This document shows positions 1 to 61,779 of a stretch of DNA of 64,000 nt, piece after piece (position 1 is the first letter of the stretch; each line of letters begins with the position of its first letter). The stretch comes from Candidatus Poribacteria bacterium (lineage in GTDB: Bacteria; Poribacteria; WGA-4E; JAJDTR01), in the NCBI GenBank assembly GCA_028820655.1, contig JAPPIK010000014.1:271079-335078 (forward strand), given 5' to 3'. A program made the translations under genes and the position numbers. The notes beneath the pieces are model-generated. The model was given only the letters and a program-made list of their open reading frames with translations. It was not told the origin of the DNA and did no database searches.

Positions 1-24
1 TACTTTAATCCATCCGTGTAGTGA

Positions 25-624
25 GTGATTGCCCCCGAAGGATTCACAAATCCGTCGGCATATCCGGTGGAGGTACATGTGTCAGATTGGCGCCCGAAGT
101 TTCGCCCCGAACACTTCTACTTCGTTACGACAAGTGCGGTTGATTCCCTCCATATCTTCCGGCGTGATGTTATCAAGCGTCTACTTGTGGACACTCTTGA
201 TTGTTTCTGTCATCACAAGCGGATGCGACTTTTTGGATTCGTCATTATGCCGAATCATCTCCACTTCATCGCACGCTTTTCGGCGACTGATCCAATGGCT
301 AGTGTTGTTAGGGACTTCAAACGACAGACCGCCGACCGGGTGATTCGACATCTGAAGGCCGAAGAGAATCAAACGGCACTCGTTGAGCTTCGGGCACGCG
401 TGAAACGACTTGAAAAGCAGAGGTACAAGGTATGGGAAGACGGATACAATGCCAAGGATGTTGTTTCCGAGACGTTCTTGCTGCAGAAGATGGAGTATAT
501 CCACAATAATCCGTGCCAACCGCATTGGAGCCTATGCAAAAAGGCCAGAGTACTATATCTGGTCAAGCGCGCGGTTTTATATGACGAGTTCGGCGTGTAT
601 TATTCCGATCGAAGATGTGCGTAA
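25..624 (+). CDS. REP-associated tyrosine transposase (RAYT) / IS200-like Y1 HuH transposase; GTG start, may be 5'-truncated by window edge
   Basis: HuH motif 'MPNHLHFI' and catalytic Tyr motif 'EYIHNNP' typical of IS200/RAYT family. Confidence 0.75.
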   Translation: MIAPEGFTNPSAYPVEVHVSDWRPKFRPEHFYFVTTSAVDSLHIFRRDVIKRLLVDTLDCFCHHKRMRLFGFVIMPNHLHFIARFSATDPMASVVRDFKRQTADRVIRHLKAEENQTALVELRARVKRLEKQRYKVWEDGYNAKDVVSETFLLQKMEYIHNNPCQPHWSLCKKARVLYLVKRAVLYDEFGVYYSDRRCA

Positions 625-4408: not shown

Positions 4409-5173
4409 ATGCCCACATCGCAAATTGCCGCGCAACTTTATACAGTGCGCGATTTTACGAAAACGCCGACTGATATCGCCCAAACGCTGAAGAGGGTGAA
4501 GCAACTCGGTTACGATGCCGTTCAATGTTCGGCACTCGGTCCCATCGAGACCGCCGAATTGAAACGCCTGGTCGATGAAGAGGGATTGAGCATTTGCGCC
4601 ACGCACACCGATTATGAACGAATGCGCACCGAACCTCAATCGGTGATCGACGAACACCAGCTTCTAGATTGCAAGTATGTTGCGATTAGCAGCATACCCG
4701 GGTCGGATCGCAGTGCCGAAGGGTTTGCGCGTTTCGCCAAGGAAGCATCGGAGGTGGCGAAGCGACTCGCGGAGGGCGGACTTGTGGTTTCGTATCACAA
4801 TCACAGTTTTGAATTAGAGAGATTTGACGGGCGCACCGGCTTGGAGATTTTGTACGCCGAGAGCGATCCCGAATTTCTCAAGAGCGAGCTTGACACCTAC
4901 TGGATTCAACATGGAGGCGGCGATCCGGCGGCTTGGATCCGCACATTGAAAGGACGCATCCCGATCATTCATGTTAAGGATATGGAGATGCAGGGGAGCA
5001 CTCAACTGTTCGCCGAAGTCGGAGAGGGGAATCTGAATTGGCCGGCAATTCTCGAGGCGTCCAGAGACGCCGGGGTCGAGTGGTATATTGTGGAACAGGA
5101 TACCTGCCAGCGCGACCCGTTTGAGAGTTTGGGAATCAGTTTGAGGAATCTGAAGGCGATGGGAATTGAGTAG
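4409..5173 (+). CDS. Sugar phosphate isomerase/epimerase (xylose-isomerase-like TIM barrel)
   Basis: Family resemblance ('SYHNHSFELE', 'HVKD'); start chosen at ATG 4409 preceded by aaaggag RBS (ORF-track start 4343 probably too early). Confidence 0.65.
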   Translation: MPTSQIAAQLYTVRDFTKTPTDIAQTLKRVKQLGYDAVQCSALGPIETAELKRLVDEEGLSICATHTDYERMRTEPQSVIDEHQLLDCKYVAISSIPGSDRSAEGFARFAKEASEVAKRLAEGGLVVSYHNHSFELERFDGRTGLEILYAESDPEFLKSELDTYWIQHGGGDPAAWIRTLKGRIPIIHVKDMEMQGSTQLFAEVGEGNLNWPAILEASRDAGVEWYIVEQDTCQRDPFESLGISLRNLKAMGIE

Positions 5174-5511
5174 CCGGCAAGTCATCAGAATAGGAATGTT
5201 ACGGAACGAAAATCGGCGATCAGGAGATCGCTCCCACCGAGCCATGATTCGTTCGCTTGAGCCATAGCGGACAACAAGGTTTTGGTTTTCGCAAGGAACC
5301 TGAATTCATAAATCGGAGTCAGCATCTACTCGTACATGGTTGGGTTTCGCTGTACTACGTGCGACGAGGCATTGGGAAGTGGGTTCCCTTATACGCTGAA
5401 TGAAGCTTGTTCGTTGGCCGCTCGACCCAACGTATAGCACGACGCTCATGGATCGGCACGGGGGTCGCCCCCTACTCCTATGTGATCGTCGTGCTTGACA
5501 AGAATTTTTGC

Positions 5512-5540
5512 TTGCAATAGGCATCAAATTGTGATATTAT
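5512..5540 (+). promoter_or_regulatory. Sigma-70-type promoter: -35 TTGCAA (5512-5517), 17-bp spacer, extended -10 TGaTATTAT (5532-5540)
   Basis: Read directly from sequence; near-consensus spacing and extended -10. Confidence 0.5.
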
Positions 5541-5550
5541 TTTGATCCAG

Positions 5551-5599
5551 CCGCGAAGAACCTTTCCATCAGTGGAAGGAAAAGCATCGCGGTTTTTTT
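5551..5599 (+). terminator. Two-tier GC-rich hairpin (ccgcga...tcgcgg with inner ccttcc/ggaagg helix) followed by T7 tract; intrinsic terminator/attenuator or end of a ~50-nt sRNA starting ~5549
   Basis: Stem 5551-5556/5587-5592, inner stem 5562-5567/5574-5579, T-run 5593-5599. Confidence 0.45.
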
Positions 5600-5792
5600 G
5601 TGCGTCTGGCACCACCGACATTTGATTATTCGTCGATGCGGAAAGACTTGAGATGACAAGCAGTGTGTGAGTTGACGGCGACCTTGGATCGTCTATTCAT
5701 ATCATACTATACGTCCTAGTTTTGGTGTACGGCATTATTTTGAGAGTGGGGTGTTATTCCCGCTCTTTTATTTTTAACGCAAAGAATTCCAA

Positions 5793-6251
5793 ATGACATC
5801 TATCTTAAAGTCCTCTATGATCGACCTGCTTACTCCTGTGCTCGATCAAGCGGGGATTGAATTCGTCGATGTCGAGTTTCAGGGTAACGACATAGTAGGT
5901 ACGATTCGGTGCCTGATTTACAAGCCCGGCGGCATTACTGTTAAAGACTGCCAACAAGTGAGCCGCATGGTGCATCCGATCCTCGAAGTCAACGGGTTGA
6001 TAGACGGCAACATGGCGCTTGAGGTTGCATCACCCGGGATTGACAGGCCGCTTGTAACCGAAGCAGATTTTCGCAGGAATATCGGGCGTGCAGTTCAAAT
6101 AGAAACGACCTCTGAAACGGGGGAATCGCATGAATTGGGTGGAACCGTGCTAGATGTCAAGGACGGTGTGCTTCGCCTTGAAGAATCCGGAACAGTAACC
6201 GAACTTCAAATTTCAACTATCATAAAGGCTCAAATACAACTGATGTGGTAA
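5793..6251 (+). CDS. rimP: Ribosome maturation factor RimP
   Basis: Motif 'LEVASPGIDRPL' and position immediately upstream of nusA. Confidence 0.85.
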   Translation: MTSILKSSMIDLLTPVLDQAGIEFVDVEFQGNDIVGTIRCLIYKPGGITVKDCQQVSRMVHPILEVNGLIDGNMALEVASPGIDRPLVTEADFRRNIGRAVQIETTSETGESHELGGTVLDVKDGVLRLEESGTVTELQISTIIKAQIQLMW

Positions 6252-6280
6252 TAGCTTGCGTGGGTAGTGGAGAATGAACT

Positions 6281-7564
6281 ATGACAAATGATTTGTTGAT
6301 GATTGTTCGTCAAATCATGGACCAGACGGAATTACCGCAAGAGACCTTCATTGAAGCAATAGAAGCCGCGCTCTATTCCGCAGCGAAGAGGCGTTACGGC
6401 TCAACACACGGGGTAACAATCAGAATAGATCCCGAGTTAGGCGAGATAAAGTGTTATGTACCCAAGAAGGTCGTCGAAATCATGCAGAGCTTCGCCAAGG
6501 AGATTCCGATTGAGGAAGCGGTAAAGCTGAAACCCGACGCCCAACTAGACGAGATGATCGAGGTCGAAGTAGACCCTAAAGAGTTTGGAAGAATCGAAGC
6601 CCAGACCGCACGTCAGATCCTCGTTCAGAAAATCAAGGAAGCGGAACGACAACAGGTATATGAGGAATATAAAGACCGGGAAAGCGAGGTTGTTACCGGG
6701 CACGTGCAGCGTATGGAGCGCGGTAGTCTTATACTTGATTTGGACCGGACGGAAGGCGTTCTGCCGTTTAGCGAAATGCCCCATCCGAACAATTACCAGC
6801 GGAATGACATTCTGAAGTGCCTCATTCTGGAGGTCCAAGACAACATGAAGGGACCGCAGGTTGTCCTTTCTCGTACTCACAAGACTCTGGTTGCTCGTTT
6901 ATTCGAGATGGAAGTTCCGGAGATTTATGATGGGCTTGTCCATCTGAAGGCTATTGAACGAGATCCGGGCGATCGTGCGAAAGTCGCCGTGACCGCCACC
7001 GTTGACGATATAGACGCAGTCGGCACATGTGTCGGGGTCAAGGGTTCCCGCGTTCAGACGGTTGTCCGCGAGTTAGATGGCGAGAAGATCGATCTTCTTG
7101 AGTGGGATGAAGATCCCAAAGTGTTCATTGCCAATGCGCTGCAGCCTGCCACGGTATCTCGAGTCACGATAGGTGAGGACGACAATGCAGAAGTGATTGT
7201 TCCGGACGATCAGCTTTCATTGGCAATCGGAAGGCGCGGACAGAATGCGCGGCTTGCCGCGCGGTTGACAGGATGGAAGGTTGATATCAAGAGCGAGTCT
7301 GAAGCGGGGTCCCAATTCAAGGAGGAGATCGTTGGTGAACTCTTTGGAACCGATTCCGATTCAGTCTCCGCAGATATCGGGCTAGACTTATCCGAGTTAG
7401 ACGGAGTCGGCTCAAAGATTGCGACGGCGCTCAAGGATTCCGAATTTCCAACCGTTGAGCTTGTTGCAAATGCCTCGTTGGAGGATTTGTCGTCTATCCC
7501 GGGCATCGGCGCCAAGACGGCCGAAAAGATACAGCGTTCCGCATTGGAGATGCTTGAACCGTAG
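6281..7564 (+). CDS. nusA: Transcription termination/antitermination factor NusA
   Basis: NusA N-domain, S1, KH1/KH2 ('LAIGRRGQNARLAARLTGWKVDI') and C-terminal acidic repeat; 427 aa. Confidence 0.95.
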   Translation: MTNDLLMIVRQIMDQTELPQETFIEAIEAALYSAAKRRYGSTHGVTIRIDPELGEIKCYVPKKVVEIMQSFAKEIPIEEAVKLKPDAQLDEMIEVEVDPKEFGRIEAQTARQILVQKIKEAERQQVYEEYKDRESEVVTGHVQRMERGSLILDLDRTEGVLPFSEMPHPNNYQRNDILKCLILEVQDNMKGPQVVLSRTHKTLVARLFEMEVPEIYDGLVHLKAIERDPGDRAKVAVTATVDDIDAVGTCVGVKGSRVQTVVRELDGEKIDLLEWDEDPKVFIANALQPATVSRVTIGEDDNAEVIVPDDQLSLAIGRRGQNARLAARLTGWKVDIKSESEAGSQFKEEIVGELFGTDSDSVSADIGLDLSELDGVGSKIATALKDSEFPTVELVANASLEDLSSIPGIGAKTAEKIQRSALEMLEP

Positions 7565-57527: not shown

Positions 57528-58280
57528 TCACACCATCCGCCGGTAGTGCTTCGTTAATTCCTCCAAATTATCCTCATCATCCGTGCTGTTCCCATTAGAC
57601 GACACCTCCATCTGGCGTTCAAAGAATTCTTTTGTGGTGCGATAGATTTCCCGCAAATCCGATCGGCTGGGACGATGACCCGAAAGATGGATCATGTCGC
57701 ACGTCCGAAGAATTTCCCCAACATGATCCGCCACCGAGCTTGTTAGATCGTGCGGAAGCGATCCCAAGATCTCCCCGGTTGTGGCGTCGAGCGTCTTAAC
57801 ACCGTATTTCTGCTCAACATAGCGCTTCACGATTGAGGAGATTCTGTTGTAATACTCGTGGAACTCTCTATGAGAATGATGAGAGGCAATTTGATTCAAC
57901 TCGCGAAGCGACAAGGCTTCTGGCGTATCCCCTTGGGCGGCTGAGGGAGTTGGCGGCCCCCTTTCCGTCTCTAGTTGTGAAGCCTGCGGCGGTGCCGCCG
58001 ATCTTCTTGGATTGGTGGGCACACCACTCGGGAGGTTAAACCGGGGCATGCGGCGGACACCGTGGGAGGGTCGGTTGCGCCTCTTTCCGATCCATGAGTA
58101 TATTCCCACGCCAATAGCGGCGAAAACCGCCATCCACACAACGACCCAAACGACTGCGGAGAGTAACCCGGACGAACGCACGTCGGGATCTGTCTCTTGG
58201 GCAAACAACCCCGCGTTTCCGGATATCAGAAGTATGAGCAATATTAAGCCGCAAGGGGCAAGCCTCGTTAATCGTTGCAC
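57528..58280 (-). CDS. Hypothetical bitopic membrane protein (signal peptide, one TM, ~170-aa cytoplasmic domain), co-oriented and overlapping with the sigma-54 activator
   Basis: N-terminal 'LILLILLISGNAGLFAQ' then TM 'LLSAVVWVVVWMAVFAAIGVGIYSWI'; 13-nt overlap with upstream regulator. Confidence 0.45.
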   Translation of the reverse strand: MQRLTRLAPCGLILLILLISGNAGLFAQETDPDVRSSGLLSAVVWVVVWMAVFAAIGVGIYSWIGKRRNRPSHGVRRMPRFNLPSGVPTNPRRSAAPPQASQLETERGPPTPSAAQGDTPEALSLRELNQIASHHSHREFHEYYNRISSIVKRYVEQKYGVKTLDATTGEILGSLPHDLTSSVADHVGEILRTCDMIHLSGHRPSRSDLREIYRTTKEFFERQMEVSSNGNSTDDEDNLEELTKHYRRMV

Positions 58281-59695
58281 AAGTCGTATTCCTTGATTTT
58301 CCTAAAGATGGTTCTCTTGTTGACGCCCAATATATTGGCTGCCTTGGCTCGGTTGTTTCCGACGTAGTCGAGTGTTGCTCGTATGGCTTCCTCTTTGATT
58401 TCCTCCATCGACATTCCGACTTCAACATTCAAACGGCGGTCGGAAGCCACAGCCGGATCTGCATTCACTGCTGTCGGCGCAGAGACGACAATGGGGGTGC
58501 CGATTCCCGTGAACTTGAGAACGCGCTCCGGAAGATCCGCCAAACCCAACTCGCGGCTGTTCGACATCACGACCATGCCTTCGATACAGTTTCTGAGGTC
58601 GCGCACGTTCCCGGGCCAATCGAATTTCATGAGTGCTCTTAACGCATCCGGGGAGATGAATTTGGACGCTTTGCGGTTCTCTTGGCAGAATTCCTCGATG
58701 AAGGTCTTGACCAGAAGCGGTATATCTCCTTTCCGCTCGCGAAGAGGCGGCAAATATATCGAAATCACATCAAGGCGATCGTACAGATCCGCCATAAATT
58801 TGCCCTCTTCGACCGCTTTCTCCAGATCTCGATTTGTTGCGCAGACGACCCGGACGTCCACCTTTACAACCTCATTACCGCCGACGCGGTGAAATTCCCT
58901 TTCTGCCAACACCCTCAGCAGCCTAGCCTGGTTCGGCAAACTCAACTCGCCGATTTCATCAAGCAGCAGTGTGCCGCCGTTAGCCGATTCAAATTTTCCT
59001 TTTCGTTGCTGATCGGCGCCGGTGAATGCACCCCGTTCATATCCAAAGAGTTCCGATTCTGCAAGACTCTCGCTCAGCGCGGCGCAATTGAAGACGACAA
59101 GCGGGCCTCTGCGTAAACTTCGATAATGGATGGCGCGGGCGACTAACTCTTTTCCGGTGCCGCGTTCACCGCGAATCATCACGGTCGATTTCGTCGGAGC
59201 GACCTGAGCAATGATCTCCCGGACCTCCTGGATGTGCTGGGAGTGGCCGGTAAGACGGAGCAAGCCCTCTCTTTCATCAATCTGGGACTGTAATTGACGG
59301 TTTTCTGCGGTAAGGCGCTGATTTTCAAGTATTTTGTGTAGAAGCGCCTTCAAATGGATGGGATTCGGGGGCTTCGGCAAAAAGTAGCTTGCTTCATGAT
59401 GGAGCATCGCCTTTATGCCTACATCTGTTTGCAGGACATCATGAGTGGTCATGAATACCACGCCGACGTCGGGATACTTTTGCCGAGCGGCTTCCATCAG
59501 TTGCAACCCGTCAAGCCGGTCTGCCTTTAGCGGCGCAACCAGAATGTCAATCCCTAGCCGATCCACCCGATCAAGCGCTTCATACATGTTCCGAGTGACG
59601 ACAAGACGCAATCCTTCACCTTCAAGCGCGCGGCATACGGTTTCACGCTCCCTTTGATCCGGATTGACGACGAGGACGGTTTTCTGTTGGCTCAT
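58268..59695 (-). CDS. Sigma-54-dependent Fis-family transcriptional activator with degenerate (non-phosphorylatable) receiver domain
   Basis: AAA+ Walker A 'GERGTGKE', 'GAFTGA' sigma-54 contact motif, C-terminal Fis-type HTH; receiver has 'VVNPDQ' and 'ILVAPLKADRLDG' in place of DDD / phospho-Asp. Confidence 0.85.
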   Translation of the reverse strand: MSQQKTVLVVNPDQRERETVCRALEGEGLRLVVTRNMYEALDRVDRLGIDILVAPLKADRLDGLQLMEAARQKYPDVGVVFMTTHDVLQTDVGIKAMLHHEASYFLPKPPNPIHLKALLHKILENQRLTAENRQLQSQIDEREGLLRLTGHSQHIQEVREIIAQVAPTKSTVMIRGERGTGKELVARAIHYRSLRRGPLVVFNCAALSESLAESELFGYERGAFTGADQQRKGKFESANGGTLLLDEIGELSLPNQARLLRVLAEREFHRVGGNEVVKVDVRVVCATNRDLEKAVEEGKFMADLYDRLDVISIYLPPLRERKGDIPLLVKTFIEEFCQENRKASKFISPDALRALMKFDWPGNVRDLRNCIEGMVVMSNSRELGLADLPERVLKFTGIGTPIVVSAPTAVNADPAVASDRRLNVEVGMSMEEIKEEAIRATLDYVGNNRAKAANILGVNKRTIFRKIKEYDLCND

Positions 59696-59863
59696 TGTTT
59701 TCACCCAATTGCGTTGGGAAATTCGAACATGAGTCAGAATGTAACCCCAAATAATACCGTATTCATACAATTTCGTCAAGCGGAATGAAAGCGTCTTCTA
59801 TCTCGATTTTGTTCAAAGGACCAGTGGCTAAGGCTAGGGAATTGAGGGATGATTGCGGAAGGG

Positions 59864-60067
59864 TGGAAGATTGGAAGGCTGGAAGGGGTGTAGGAGTCGT
59901 TGTCTGAATCACGGATTACACGGATTAAAGACGTCGCACTGACGCTTATTTGCGCCTTTCTAATTACCCGCAAATGGGCCTCCCTGTACCGCAAACTGTT
60001 AGTTTGCGGATATCACAATCTAACAGATTATGGTACAGAATAACGTCGTTCCCCAAAAGCATGTGTA
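59864..60067. repeat. Copy 1 of ~200-bp direct repeat containing 21-bp palindrome ccgcaaact-gtt-agtttgcgg (59989-60009), flanked by ctgtacc/ggtacag inverted pair, and tandem 'cacggatta' units
   Basis: Read directly; near-identical to 60124-60339. Confidence 0.6.
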
Positions 60068-60123
60068 GTTATTAGTTGCGATGACTATAGAACGAGAGCG
60101 CAAGTCGGAGATTGGGATTGGAA

Positions 60124-60339
60124 GTTTGGAAGGCTATAAGGGGTGTAGGAGCCGTTGTCTGAATCACGGATTACACGGATTAAAGGATTTCACGGATTAA
60201 AGACGTCGCACTGACGCTTATTTGCGCCTTTCTAATTACCCGCAAATGGGCCTCCCTGTACCGCAAACTGTTAGTTTGCGGATATCAAAATCTAACAGAT
60301 TGTGGTACAGAAGAATGTCATACCCCAAAACATGTGTAA
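60124..60339. repeat. Copy 2 of ~200-bp direct repeat (one extra 17-bp 'aggatttcacggattaa' unit, few substitutions)
   Basis: Read directly; period ~260 bp relative to copy 1. Confidence 0.6.
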
Positions 60340-60606
60340 TTGAGGTTGGACGGGAGGAAAATCGGCTGGATGCACGGGCCCTGGAGACAGAGAGTTTTCG
60401 AAAAAAGGGATATCTATGGGACGGCACGGGGACCGTCCCCTACAAGGCGGTGCGATTATTCCGTATACGCCGAGTATTTTTATCTGATATAATCCAACCC
60501 GAATTTTTAATGTTCAAAGCCTGTGGGTGATTGCCGTATCTTGGGGGCGATCACCCCTATTCCCATGCCAACGCTTTAATACCGGAATCGGTTGGGAGGA
60601 ATGAAA

Positions 60607-61779
60607 ATGGAAATCTATAGATCGCCATCGGCGGCGGACTCTGAAGAGGCAGCCAAATACTACCGTGCCACGGCATTCGCAGATTCGAAGCCGGCGCTTG
60701 CGGCGCCCGGTGCGACGCCGGAGCGTTTGGAACACTTCAAAGAGCACGGTTTCGTGATTGTCACCGACTTCGTCGGCAGCCCGTGGATTCCGATTCTGCG
60801 AGAAGCCGGCAGGCGTGTCACCGAGGCGTGTGCTCCCGAGAACGGCTACAGCAAGATTGATTGCTCCAAAGGCTACGTGCATCGGGCGGCAGAGGATGAA
60901 CCGTGGGCAATCCGAGGAATTATCCATCCGGCTTTCGGCGAGTCGAGTTTTGCCGAATTCTACGGTTCGGAAGAGTTTCTCGGCTTTGTCCGTGATTGGT
61001 GCCACGGATTGGAACCGAAAGATCTCGTCATGAGCCCGATGCTCCTCTGGTGCAATCCCAAGAAGAACGAGAATGGTCCCAGTTGGCATCGCGATACGAC
61101 ATGGTGGGGCTCCGGAGCGGGCTATTTCGCACAACGGCCGGTACAGGAAGGTCCGGAAGCCTTTTCGGAGGAGGTTGAGAGGCGGCGTTGGAAAGAGATT
61201 CAAGAGGAAAACTTGAAATCGATCGCCGAAAGAAAGGGCGTCAGTATGTTTCTTGCACTTACCGACGATGAGTGCCATGAACTGATTCCCGGAAGTCACC
61301 ACCGGTGGCGAACGCCGTTTGAGCATGATGTATTACTCCCGAAAGCCATGAAGGATCAAGGCGTCCCGTACACGCCGAGTTGGAACGGTGTCGATCCGTT
61401 GCCGAATCAGGCTGCAATTCGGTTGAAGCCCGGTGAAGCGCTCATCCGGAACGGCGCCACCATCCACACGGGGCACACCGTCCCCGACCGCGAGCGCAAC
61501 ACATTGGCAATCGGTTGGAGCAAATGGTCGGGGCCTTTCACGGAAGAACCGGCCGTGTCGGACGTGCGCAACGCATGGCAACTGGATCCCGCCGTGCGGG
61601 AGGCGTTGCCGCACGAGTGGATGAAGACGACGTGGGATCGTTGGGCGGAGACGGTGAAACTCGGGGATACGTTAGAGGACCGCTACACAGGATATGATAT
61701 CAACAACATCAAGGCTGGGCAAGTATTGGGTTGGCGCGGCGAGTTGGAGAGGCAAGCGGCGGCGGCTGGAGAGGAGTAG
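60607..61779 (+). CDS. Phytanoyl-CoA dioxygenase (PhyH) family Fe(II)/2-oxoglutarate-dependent oxygenase
   Basis: 'SWHRDTTWWG' (HxD) and 'TIHTGHT' distal His; gggagga RBS 6 nt before ATG 60607. Confidence 0.65.
   Translation: MEIYRSPSAADSEEAAKYYRATAFADSKPALAAPGATPERLEHFKEHGFVIVTDFVGSPWIPILREAGRRVTEACAPENGYSKIDCSKGYVHRAAEDEPWAIRGIIHPAFGESSFAEFYGSEEFLGFVRDWCHGLEPKDLVMSPMLLWCNPKKNENGPSWHRDTTWWGSGAGYFAQRPVQEGPEAFSEEVERRRWKEIQEENLKSIAERKGVSMFLALTDDECHELIPGSHHRWRTPFEHDVLLPKAMKDQGVPYTPSWNGVDPLPNQAAIRLKPGEALIRNGATIHTGHTVPDRERNTLAIGWSKWSGPFTEEPAVSDVRNAWQLDPAVREALPHEWMKTTWDRWAETVKLGDTLEDRYTGYDINNIKAGQVLGWRGELERQAAAAGEE

Follow-up and report, generated by a model that had tools for sequence, protein, structure and literature searches.

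In Pseudomonas fluorescens SBW25, the doublets known as REPINs are made of two inverted palindromic units of about 25 nt (repetitive extragenic palindromic sequences, REPs) and a spacer, with one dominant configuration (Bertels and Rainey; PMC3116915, PMC3337134, PMC5581495). They are extragenic and present in many copies per genome, they may be arranged in tandem, their hairpins are retained despite variable spacers and flanks, and several such units surround a gene for a REP-associated tyrosine transposase (RAYT). In Escherichia coli, REPs and bacterial interspersed mosaic elements (BIMEs) have a conserved 5' head (GTAG), occur as inverted pairs with short linkers and as tandem BIME arrays, and flank the HUH/Y1 gene of TnpA-REP (Ton-Hoang et al., PMC3333891; Messing et al., PMC3479197, PDB 4ER8). 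Tandemly repeated REPINs or BIMEs, together with a RAYT-based amplification model, have been described in both E. coli and P. fluorescens (PMC3337134, PMC3333891). Here, we report on a stretch of 64,000 nucleotides of Candidatus Poribacteria DNA (assembly GCA_028820655.1, contig JAPPIK010000014.1, positions 271,079 to 335,078, hereafter the window), in which a pair of direct repeats lies between the divergent genes of an NtrC-type response regulator and of a PhyH-like protein. We consider it highly probable that each repeat copy carries one REPIN-type doublet, with TGTA as its head, of a REP family dispersed through Candidatus Poribacteria genomes, which resembles the two systems above in these traits of the repeats, and in a RAYT-like gene flanked by them.

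Organisation of the repeat pair

The original prediction had described two nearly identical direct copies, the second beginning at 60124. Two direct copies of about 205–220 nt are indeed present, at 59864–60067 and 60119–60339, the second one starting at 60119, and they are 87% identical over the full repeat unit (BLAST, 221 columns, E 3.5e-78). Identity reaches 94% over 67 nt between 59864–59930 and 60119–60185, and 93% over 153 nt between 59906–60058 and 60178–60330; about 97 nt of the unit are 100% identical, and the main difference between the copies is a 17-nt indel. No further copy was found in the 64-kb window, and the period of 255–272 nt goes unreported by Tandem Repeats Finder (TRF), since it amounts to no more than about 1.9 copies and contains an indel; a repeat search and BLAST do reveal the pair. 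The modules that can be told apart at the locus are the following:

59984..60038, plus strand: REPIN-type core of copy 1, composed of CTGTA-P1 (59989–60009), a 3-nt spacer, P2 (60013–60033) and TACAG
60256..60310, plus strand: REPIN-type core of copy 2, with P1 at 60261–60281 and P2 at 60285–60305
59899..59929, plus strand: C module of copy 1, GTTGTCTGAATCACGGATTA CACGGATTA AAG, a short, independently dispersed module with two CACGGATTA units
60154..60201, plus strand: C module of copy 2, which has three CACGGATTA units and exceeds that of copy 1 by 17 nt
59930..59983, plus strand: H module of copy 1, made of a pair of small hairpins, CGTC..GACG and ATTTGCG..CGCAAAT
60202..60255, plus strand: H module of copy 2, 100% identical to that of copy 1
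60039..60079, plus strand: tail module after the first core, AATAACGTCGTTCCCCAAAAGCATGTG..., with its copy 2 equivalent at 60311–60339
59835..59900, plus strand: G1, a GGAAGG-rich tract at the left edge of copy 1, ancestral, aligning to the single G tract of the loci L105 and L108
60090..60155, plus strand: G2, the duplicated G tract, located where copy 2 begins
60330..60395, plus strand: G3, the third G tract, which is degenerate, has TGGAGACAGAGAG at its end like the orthologues and closes a G-X-G-X-G structure

Each core holds the hairpin P1, CCGCAAACT-GTT-AGTTTGCGG, at 59989–60009 and 60261–60281 (0 expected in 100 shuffles), whose perfect 9-bp arms surround a 3-nt centre, GTT. It is therefore an inverted repeat of the hairpin type rather than a 21-mer complementary to itself throughout, so that of the 21-bp perfect palindrome initially announced, the perfection of the arms has stood. 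The enclosure of P1 by CTGTACC (59984–59990 and 60256–60262) and GGTACAG (60032–60038 and 60304–60310) was recovered in both copies, as was the difference in the number of CACGGATTA units (2 in copy 1 and 3 in copy 2). P2 is P1 in reverse orientation, the core thus consisting of two inverted units and a short spacer. In copy 1, P2 reads TCACAATCT AAC AGATTATGG, with one stem mismatch relative to the family consensus, and in copy 2 TCAAAATCT AAC AGATTGTGG, with a single stem mismatch other than that of copy 1. Folded as DNA, the cores have z-scores of -5.4 (copy 1) and -7.8 (copy 2).

Most of the remaining modules are also found at other loci (designated here by L numbers). The C module is present in L020, L075, L068, L107–L109, L040 and L116, with the three-unit form in L068 and L107–L109, and the tail follows the core at 76–86% identity in L020, L075, L103, L090 and L067; in L020 and L075, the C module comes next after the tail. 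The H module (DNA fold z-score -2.9) had no match elsewhere in 970 kb of related loci. One metagenome contig of JGI matched a 20-mer of this module, and was discarded as a chance match in a high-GC coding region without similarity to the window.

Dispersal of the hairpin family

The exact 21-mer of P1 was scanned against one genome per species (185,579 species), with hits counted in 8-kb blocks. This gave at least 103 blocks and at least 119 P1 sites in at least 37 assemblies, those listed being 33 metagenome-assembled genomes (MAGs) of Candidatus Poribacteria and 4 assemblies of Acidobacteriota/Pyrinomonadaceae. A single chromosome of 6.49 Mb (OZ242354.1) has at least 26 of these blocks, and at least 66 REP units. 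These dispersal counts are those of other genomes, the organism of the window being represented by its 64 kb.

When the sites are set in register, their common part is only 53–55 nt long and corresponds to (Y)TGTA-P1-spacer-P2-TACA(R), in which the P2 of the family is CCACAATCT-AAC-AGATTGTGG, or a variant such as GCACAAACT-AAC-AGTTTGTGC. The same limits emerge from a BLAST comparison of the intergenic region with about 800 kb of Poribacteria loci: some 145 high-scoring segment pairs cover 59985–60039 and 60257–60311, a handful fall on the CACGGATTA module and the tail, and none lies over 59940–59980. The flanks of the core differ from subfamily to subfamily. The sites are predominantly (111 of 121) outside greedily chosen open reading frames (ORFs) of at least 100 aa, most of the 10 exceptions being in short, probably spurious ORFs. 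At some loci the elements form tandem arrays, with a period of 143 nt (L068, L079 and L047) or 101 nt (L099). The left flank of one subfamily, 'TTCATTATTC', was considered as a gene start, and rejected as non-coding because its translations are just 3–64 aa long (9 of 11 under 40 aa).

The orientation of the sites relative to the flanking genes is not strongly biased (38 versus 26 among co-directional genes, 11 convergent and 12 divergent), which bears on the reading of the repeats as a small-RNA gene pair, or as an RNA structure transcribed and selected at this locus as a terminator, attenuator or mRNA stabiliser. The units do fold well as RNA (z-scores of -1.9 and -3.5), each copy has a weak terminator-like hairpin followed by a T-rich tail, and REPs elsewhere can stabilise mRNAs or attenuate transcription (PMC3337134, PMC3479197). 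Several results speak against such a role: there is no Rfam match at gathering thresholds in the window, and under a permissive setting only chance-level matches (E of at least 0.76) in 59600–60700; the terminator-like matches are at the shuffled expectation; no promoter-like site precedes the units; and the element, which is absent from the orthologous loci, lies between divergent promoters and not in a 3' UTR. The small-RNA gene pair put forward at the outset has thus received support neither from Rfam, nor from promoters, terminators or orientation, and an RNA function at this locus is very unlikely.

Several further observations concern the distribution and integrity of the hairpin. The four contigs from Acidobacteriota/Pyrinomonadaceae MAGs (L021, L089, L093 and L098) also have the GTA-headed hairpin, partly as inverted doublets, and their GC content is 52–58%, versus about 49% in the Poribacteria loci; their copies may reflect either horizontal spread or mis-binning. 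In L085, an element of about 180–240 nt is inserted in the loop of P2 (approximately 6200–6470, minus-strand P1 at offset 1537), and REPs interrupted by other small elements occur in L085, L024, L031, L052, L061, L069, L100 and L103. These interruptions recall the insertion sequences (ISs) that aim at REP loops in other bacteria. In several loci, the 3' half of P2 is replaced by a 'GATCAAGCGA...' module.

Structure and covariation of the REP unit

The REP unit of this family measures about 25 nt and is made of a 5'-TGTA head, a 9-bp stem (CCRCAAWCT) and a GTT loop. Among 260 units, 209 have the TGTA head, and two positions of the stem vary with compensatory changes: position 3 is a G-C pair in 167 units, an A-T pair in 87 and unpaired in 6, while position 7 is A-T in 195, T-A in 59 and unpaired in 6, that is, about 2% unpaired. 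A pairing of P1 with P2 would yield a wobble and a mismatch, whereas the stems proper to each unit stay perfect. Given that compensation preserves a perfect stem within each unit, the single hairpin, rather than the P1-P2 pairing, appears from this covariation to be the structure under selection. At a higher level, 77 of the 95 neighbouring unit pairs (at most 100 nt apart) share one inverted configuration, with GTA...TAC outermost, and their spacers are mostly of 1–9 nt.

A short, non-coding and dispersed element with inverted ends (CTGTACC/GGTACAG) could also be a classical miniature inverted-repeat transposable element (MITE), that is, a non-autonomous derivative of an IS with a DDE transposase, bearing terminal inverted repeats and generating target-site duplications. 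Direct repeats flanking 79 distinct doublet contexts, however, are no more frequent than in the shuffled expectation; the inverted ends belong to two self-folding hairpins, with the compensatory changes inside each hairpin; and the only gene consistently flanked by the element is of the HUH/Y1 RAYT-like type described below, not a DDE transposase. The MITE reading is therefore highly improbable. Of the duplicated MITE/REP-like element that the original prediction had listed among its alternatives, the REP form has been borne out and the MITE form has not; likewise, the many dispersed copies that it associated with a MITE were found, without the target-site duplications expected with them.

A RAYT-like gene flanked by the hairpin

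Three of the P1-containing blocks (L015, L074 and L041) have homologous RAYT-like ORFs, and four further members of this family were taken from complete chromosomes. The gene is flanked by the same hairpin in all six Poribacteria genomes concerned (L015, L113/L074, L114, L115, L116 and L041), with P1-type hairpins on both sides and often in arrays, as in L115, where 5 are upstream and 7 downstream. The member described in most detail is:

L015, 4445–5173: RAYT-like ORF of 242 aa, with an HUH motif (NHVHV) and a Y-x2-NP tyrosine motif

Both motifs are invariant in the alignment of the family. The best NCBIfam match of the L015 protein is REP_Tyr_transpos (3e-18), and in the PDB its family matches only the TnpA-REP of E. 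coli (4ER8, profile E 3e-4), in an alignment that covers the region of the catalytic tyrosine. The family has more than 1,200 members, of which the named ones are from Poribacteria and one was labelled RayT by JGI; according to the cluster records, most clusters of homologues are recorded on one contig each. Hairpins of one family on both sides of a RAYT-like gene are what characterises a REP family with its RAYT (PMC3116915, PMC3337134, PMC5581495, PMC3333891).

IS200/IS605 ends and their non-autonomous derivatives (palindrome-associated transposable elements, PATEs) are comparable in that subterminal hairpins are recognised by a Y1 transposase and that insertion produces no target-site duplication. 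Unlike in these elements, no multi-copy element carrying a transposase was seen here, and the best NCBIfam match is REP_Tyr_transpos, not transpos_IS200.

REP units are also found inside the reading frame of the RAYT-like gene (L015 4445–5173, L113 2501–3250, L114 2501–3220, L115 2501–3160 and L116 2501–3223). The last five codons and the stop coincide with the head, 5' arm and loop of a REP (TGT ACC GCA AAC TGT TAG, read as C-T-A-N-C-stop), and an inverted P2-type REP about 150 codons into the gene encodes AQTNSLCY. In this segment, A154, Q155, L159 and Y161 are invariant or nearly so among 12 aligned members, with P0157 reading TKADNLCY. One may go further and imagine an old, phylum-wide Poribacteria REPIN-RAYT system in which REPs are built into the RAYT frame, with possible autoregulation or self-mobilisation, in which the doubled REPIN of the window may have taken on the function of a spacer or insulator separating the divergent promoters, and whose REP also occurs in some Acidobacteriota. 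Taken as a whole, we regard this scenario as unlikely. If it were true, the RAYT-like enzyme could act on its own gene or mRNA (autoregulation or self-mobilisation).

Absence from orthologous loci and history of the insertion

Orthologous loci (L105–L112) were found via the activator. The closest of them, L105 (OZ246960.1) and L106, have an activator that is 95% identical and the same gene order (acyltransferase, PhyH, activator, ATP synthase), and the window is about 84% identical in nucleotides to OZ246960.1 across the flanking genes. Their intergenic region of 444 bp contains neither P1 nor P2, even when three mismatches are allowed. BLAST co-linearity with both loci stops at 59896 and restarts at 60339, with 48 nt of the orthologue aligning to both sides. 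The core is absent from the more distant orthologues (L107–L112) as well; L107–L109 have other small repeats at the same intergenic site (a GTAGGGTGGGCA-type REP, the CACGGATTA module and the GATCAAGCGA module). Because OZ246960.1 carries the P1 family elsewhere in its genome, the difference at this locus is an insertion polymorphism and does not point to a lineage devoid of the element.

The GGAAGG-rich tract, which is single in the orthologues, is present three times in the window, where G1, G2 and G3 all align to it. The locus can thus be written G-X-G-X-G, X being made of the C module, the H module, the REPIN core and the tail. We propose that one mosaic X would first have been acquired beside the ancestral G tract, and that G+X would then have been duplicated in tandem, either through unequal recombination or slippage between G tracts, or through a RAYT-type amplification of the BIME kind. 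The different P2 mismatches of the two copies arose after the duplication. Since the three-unit form of the C module is the one seen elsewhere, copy 1 has probably lost 17 nt of this module, as judged from the comparison of the sequences.

Could the pair result from the plain duplication of a segment of unique intergenic DNA, devoid of mobile-element content? The copies are adjacent, the ancestral G tract is included in the duplicated part, and the H module has no other copy, all of which would suit such an event. Yet the core, the C module, the tail and the G-type tract recur at unrelated Poribacteria loci. A tandem duplication did take place, but the duplicated material is a mosaic of dispersed repeats, and a duplication of unique DNA is almost certainly not the explanation.

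The neighbouring genes and their promoters

The two genes that border the element, without being part of it, are those that the original prediction had named, and their domain matches agree with it, that of PhyH being weak:

58268..59695, minus strand: NtrC-type response regulator (REC, Sigma54_activat and HTH_8 domains)
60601..61779, plus strand: PhyH-like gene, with a weak PhyH match

Both genes retain promoter elements of the sigma-70 type. The activator has a sigma-70-like site (TTGACG-17-TATTAT) at 59779–59751, in a region that is kept in the orthologues, and the extended -10 reported for the PhyH gene, TGATATAAT at 60485–60493, is likewise conserved in the orthologous loci. The repeats are inserted between these two conserved divergent promoters, and neither one is touched.

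This arrangement had suggested an enhancer array, in which the two palindromic sites would be upstream activating sequences (UASs) bound by the divergent NtrC-type sigma-54 activator. Pairs of UASs of this type do consist of two spaced palindromic sites upstream of a divergent activator gene, and the site is here present twice beside an activator with a Fis-type helix-turn-helix. The partner promoter is missing, however, as already remarked for the interval between the repeats and the PhyH gene: a pattern search for -24/-12 sites (TGGCAC-N5-TTGC type, at most 2 mismatches) found none in the regulatory part of the intergenic region (59700–60600), and the 59 consensus matches in the whole window, versus 56 expected, are at chance level. 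The 21-mer recurs at over 100 loci unrelated to this one, the Poribacteria assemblies that have it numbering at least 33, the sites are lacking in the closest orthologues despite a 95% identical activator and the same neighbours, and both flanking genes keep their sigma-70-type elements, all of which sets the repeats apart from known NtrC-type UAS pairs. Dispersal, absence from the orthologues and the lack of a suitable promoter together indicate that the palindromes are not an enhancer of the regulator; the UAS reading has lost its ground, and is extremely unlikely.

As to public records, the exact PhyH protein has no database record, and an identical activator is present on a single public contig, Logan SRR10996926 (L001, 3.8 kb), which ends at window position 59927 inside the CACGGATTA repeat (L001 1–20 corresponding to window 59908–59927). 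The local duplication alone accounts for this break, which is uninformative on genome-wide copy number. Another ORF, of 250 aa, is found after the activator (window 57528–58280, minus strand); it has no Pfam match, overlaps the stop of the activator by 13 nt and is probably co-transcribed with it. This ORF is kept in L105–L109 and missing in L110–L112.

Proposed mobilisation of the element

With its many copies, extragenic position, inverted doublets, compensated stems, flanked RAYT-like gene and presence or absence at given sites without target-site duplication, the family has the features of REPINs and BIMEs, and the element is an ordinary kind of bacterial repeat, of the REP/REPIN type. We infer that a RAYT mobilises the element by acting on single-stranded DNA, and that the element has no dedicated regulatory role for the two neighbouring genes. 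The doublets would fold as hairpins in single-stranded DNA, as with E. coli TnpA-REP and the Pseudomonas REPINs, and the RAYT, presumably a single-copy HUH/Y1 tyrosine transposase, would bind the head and the stem, cut, and rejoin nearby, thus spreading the doublets; any effect on neighbouring genes would be incidental. These steps are modelled on the biochemistry of E. coli TnpA-REP and of IS200/IS605 (PMC3333891, PMC3479197).

The resemblance with the described systems is not complete. The spacer of the SBW25 REPINs is of about 35–110 nt, versus usually 1–9 nt here, where the stem is a perfect 9-bp one with a 3-nt loop and the host belongs to a candidate phylum of sponge symbionts. The Poribacteria RAYT-like protein is also longer (about 240 aa), with REP units in its coding sequence. 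Relative to E. coli TnpA-REP, protein similarity is limited to the HUH and tyrosine regions, the Poribacteria protein being known from its sequence.

Several points weigh against the REPIN assignment, or limit its reach. The counts of the scan are lower bounds, and its seeding with the exact 21-mer biases the sample towards P1. The RAYT-like family scores below the curated cut-offs, both in NCBIfam (66 bits versus 80) and in Pfam (Y1_Tnp, 17 versus 23), and the cognate RAYT was not found within the 64-kb window. The Poribacteria REP combines a perfect stem with a TGTA head, whereas the substrate of E. coli TnpA-REP must have GTAG as its head and a mismatch within its stem (PMC3333891), and the E. 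coli recognition rules are consequently not simply transferable. Transposition and enzyme activity of the Poribacteria RAYT are themselves deduced by analogy. Finally, the H module, a part of the full mosaic of about 200 nt, is so far limited to a single locus.

Other RAYTs and palindrome families

The window has a RAYT of its own (25–624), of another type, with a different palindrome (659–682), in agreement with what had been noticed at the start. It was considered as the cognate enzyme of the P1 family and rejected: tblastn and phmmer found no such gene beside P1 sites, and the palindrome 3' of it comes from a different small family. This gene looks frameshifted right after its YIHNNP motif, another frame reading ...RPEYYIWSSARFY, the usual C-terminus of RAYTs. 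Relatives of the palindrome on its 3' side, GCTGTGGATTTGCCAATCCACAGC, are present with compensated changes (TCTGGATTTGCCAATCCAGA) in L005, L007, L009, L028 and L034, which suggests, from the pattern of substitutions, that palindromes of the GCTGTGGATTTGCCAATCCACAGC type are a third small family. The reverse complement of window positions 1–30 (AATCACTCACTACACGGATGGATTAAAGTA) resembles the CACGGATTA module, a likeness that is non-significant alone (E of about 5); there may be another mosaic repeat immediately beyond the left edge of the window, upstream of the window RAYT.

A second REP family (GTAGGGTGGGCAnTGCCCACC), of the classical type, flanks another RAYT in L003 (gene at 5565–6140, REP_Tyr_transpos 5e-52; region 5448–6600). 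The GTAGGGTGGGCAnTGCCCACC REP also occurs in L108 and L109, in the intergenic region next to the orthologous activator (approximately 4600–4640).

Significance for Poribacteria and for REPIN-RAYT systems

Poribacteria, which are symbionts of sponges, have not been cultured and are known only through MAGs. For their genomics, the present reading removes a false lead, the palindromes being no enhancer of the regulator, and the high-copy REP family offers an explanation for breaks in short-read assemblies of Poribacteria, such as the Logan contig that ends inside the repeat. The family is also a ready marker for strain typing and for the comparison of orthologous sites.

To our knowledge, REPIN-RAYT systems have been studied almost only in Proteobacteria. 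In the literature searched, no paper links Poribacteria with REPs or RAYTs, those of the apparent matches that were examined being due to the author name Raytselis in reference lists. The presence of REPs inside the RAYT coding sequence is a small curiosity, which could bear on the coupling between RAYTs and REPINs, and the family adds a distant lineage to the REPIN-RAYT systems.

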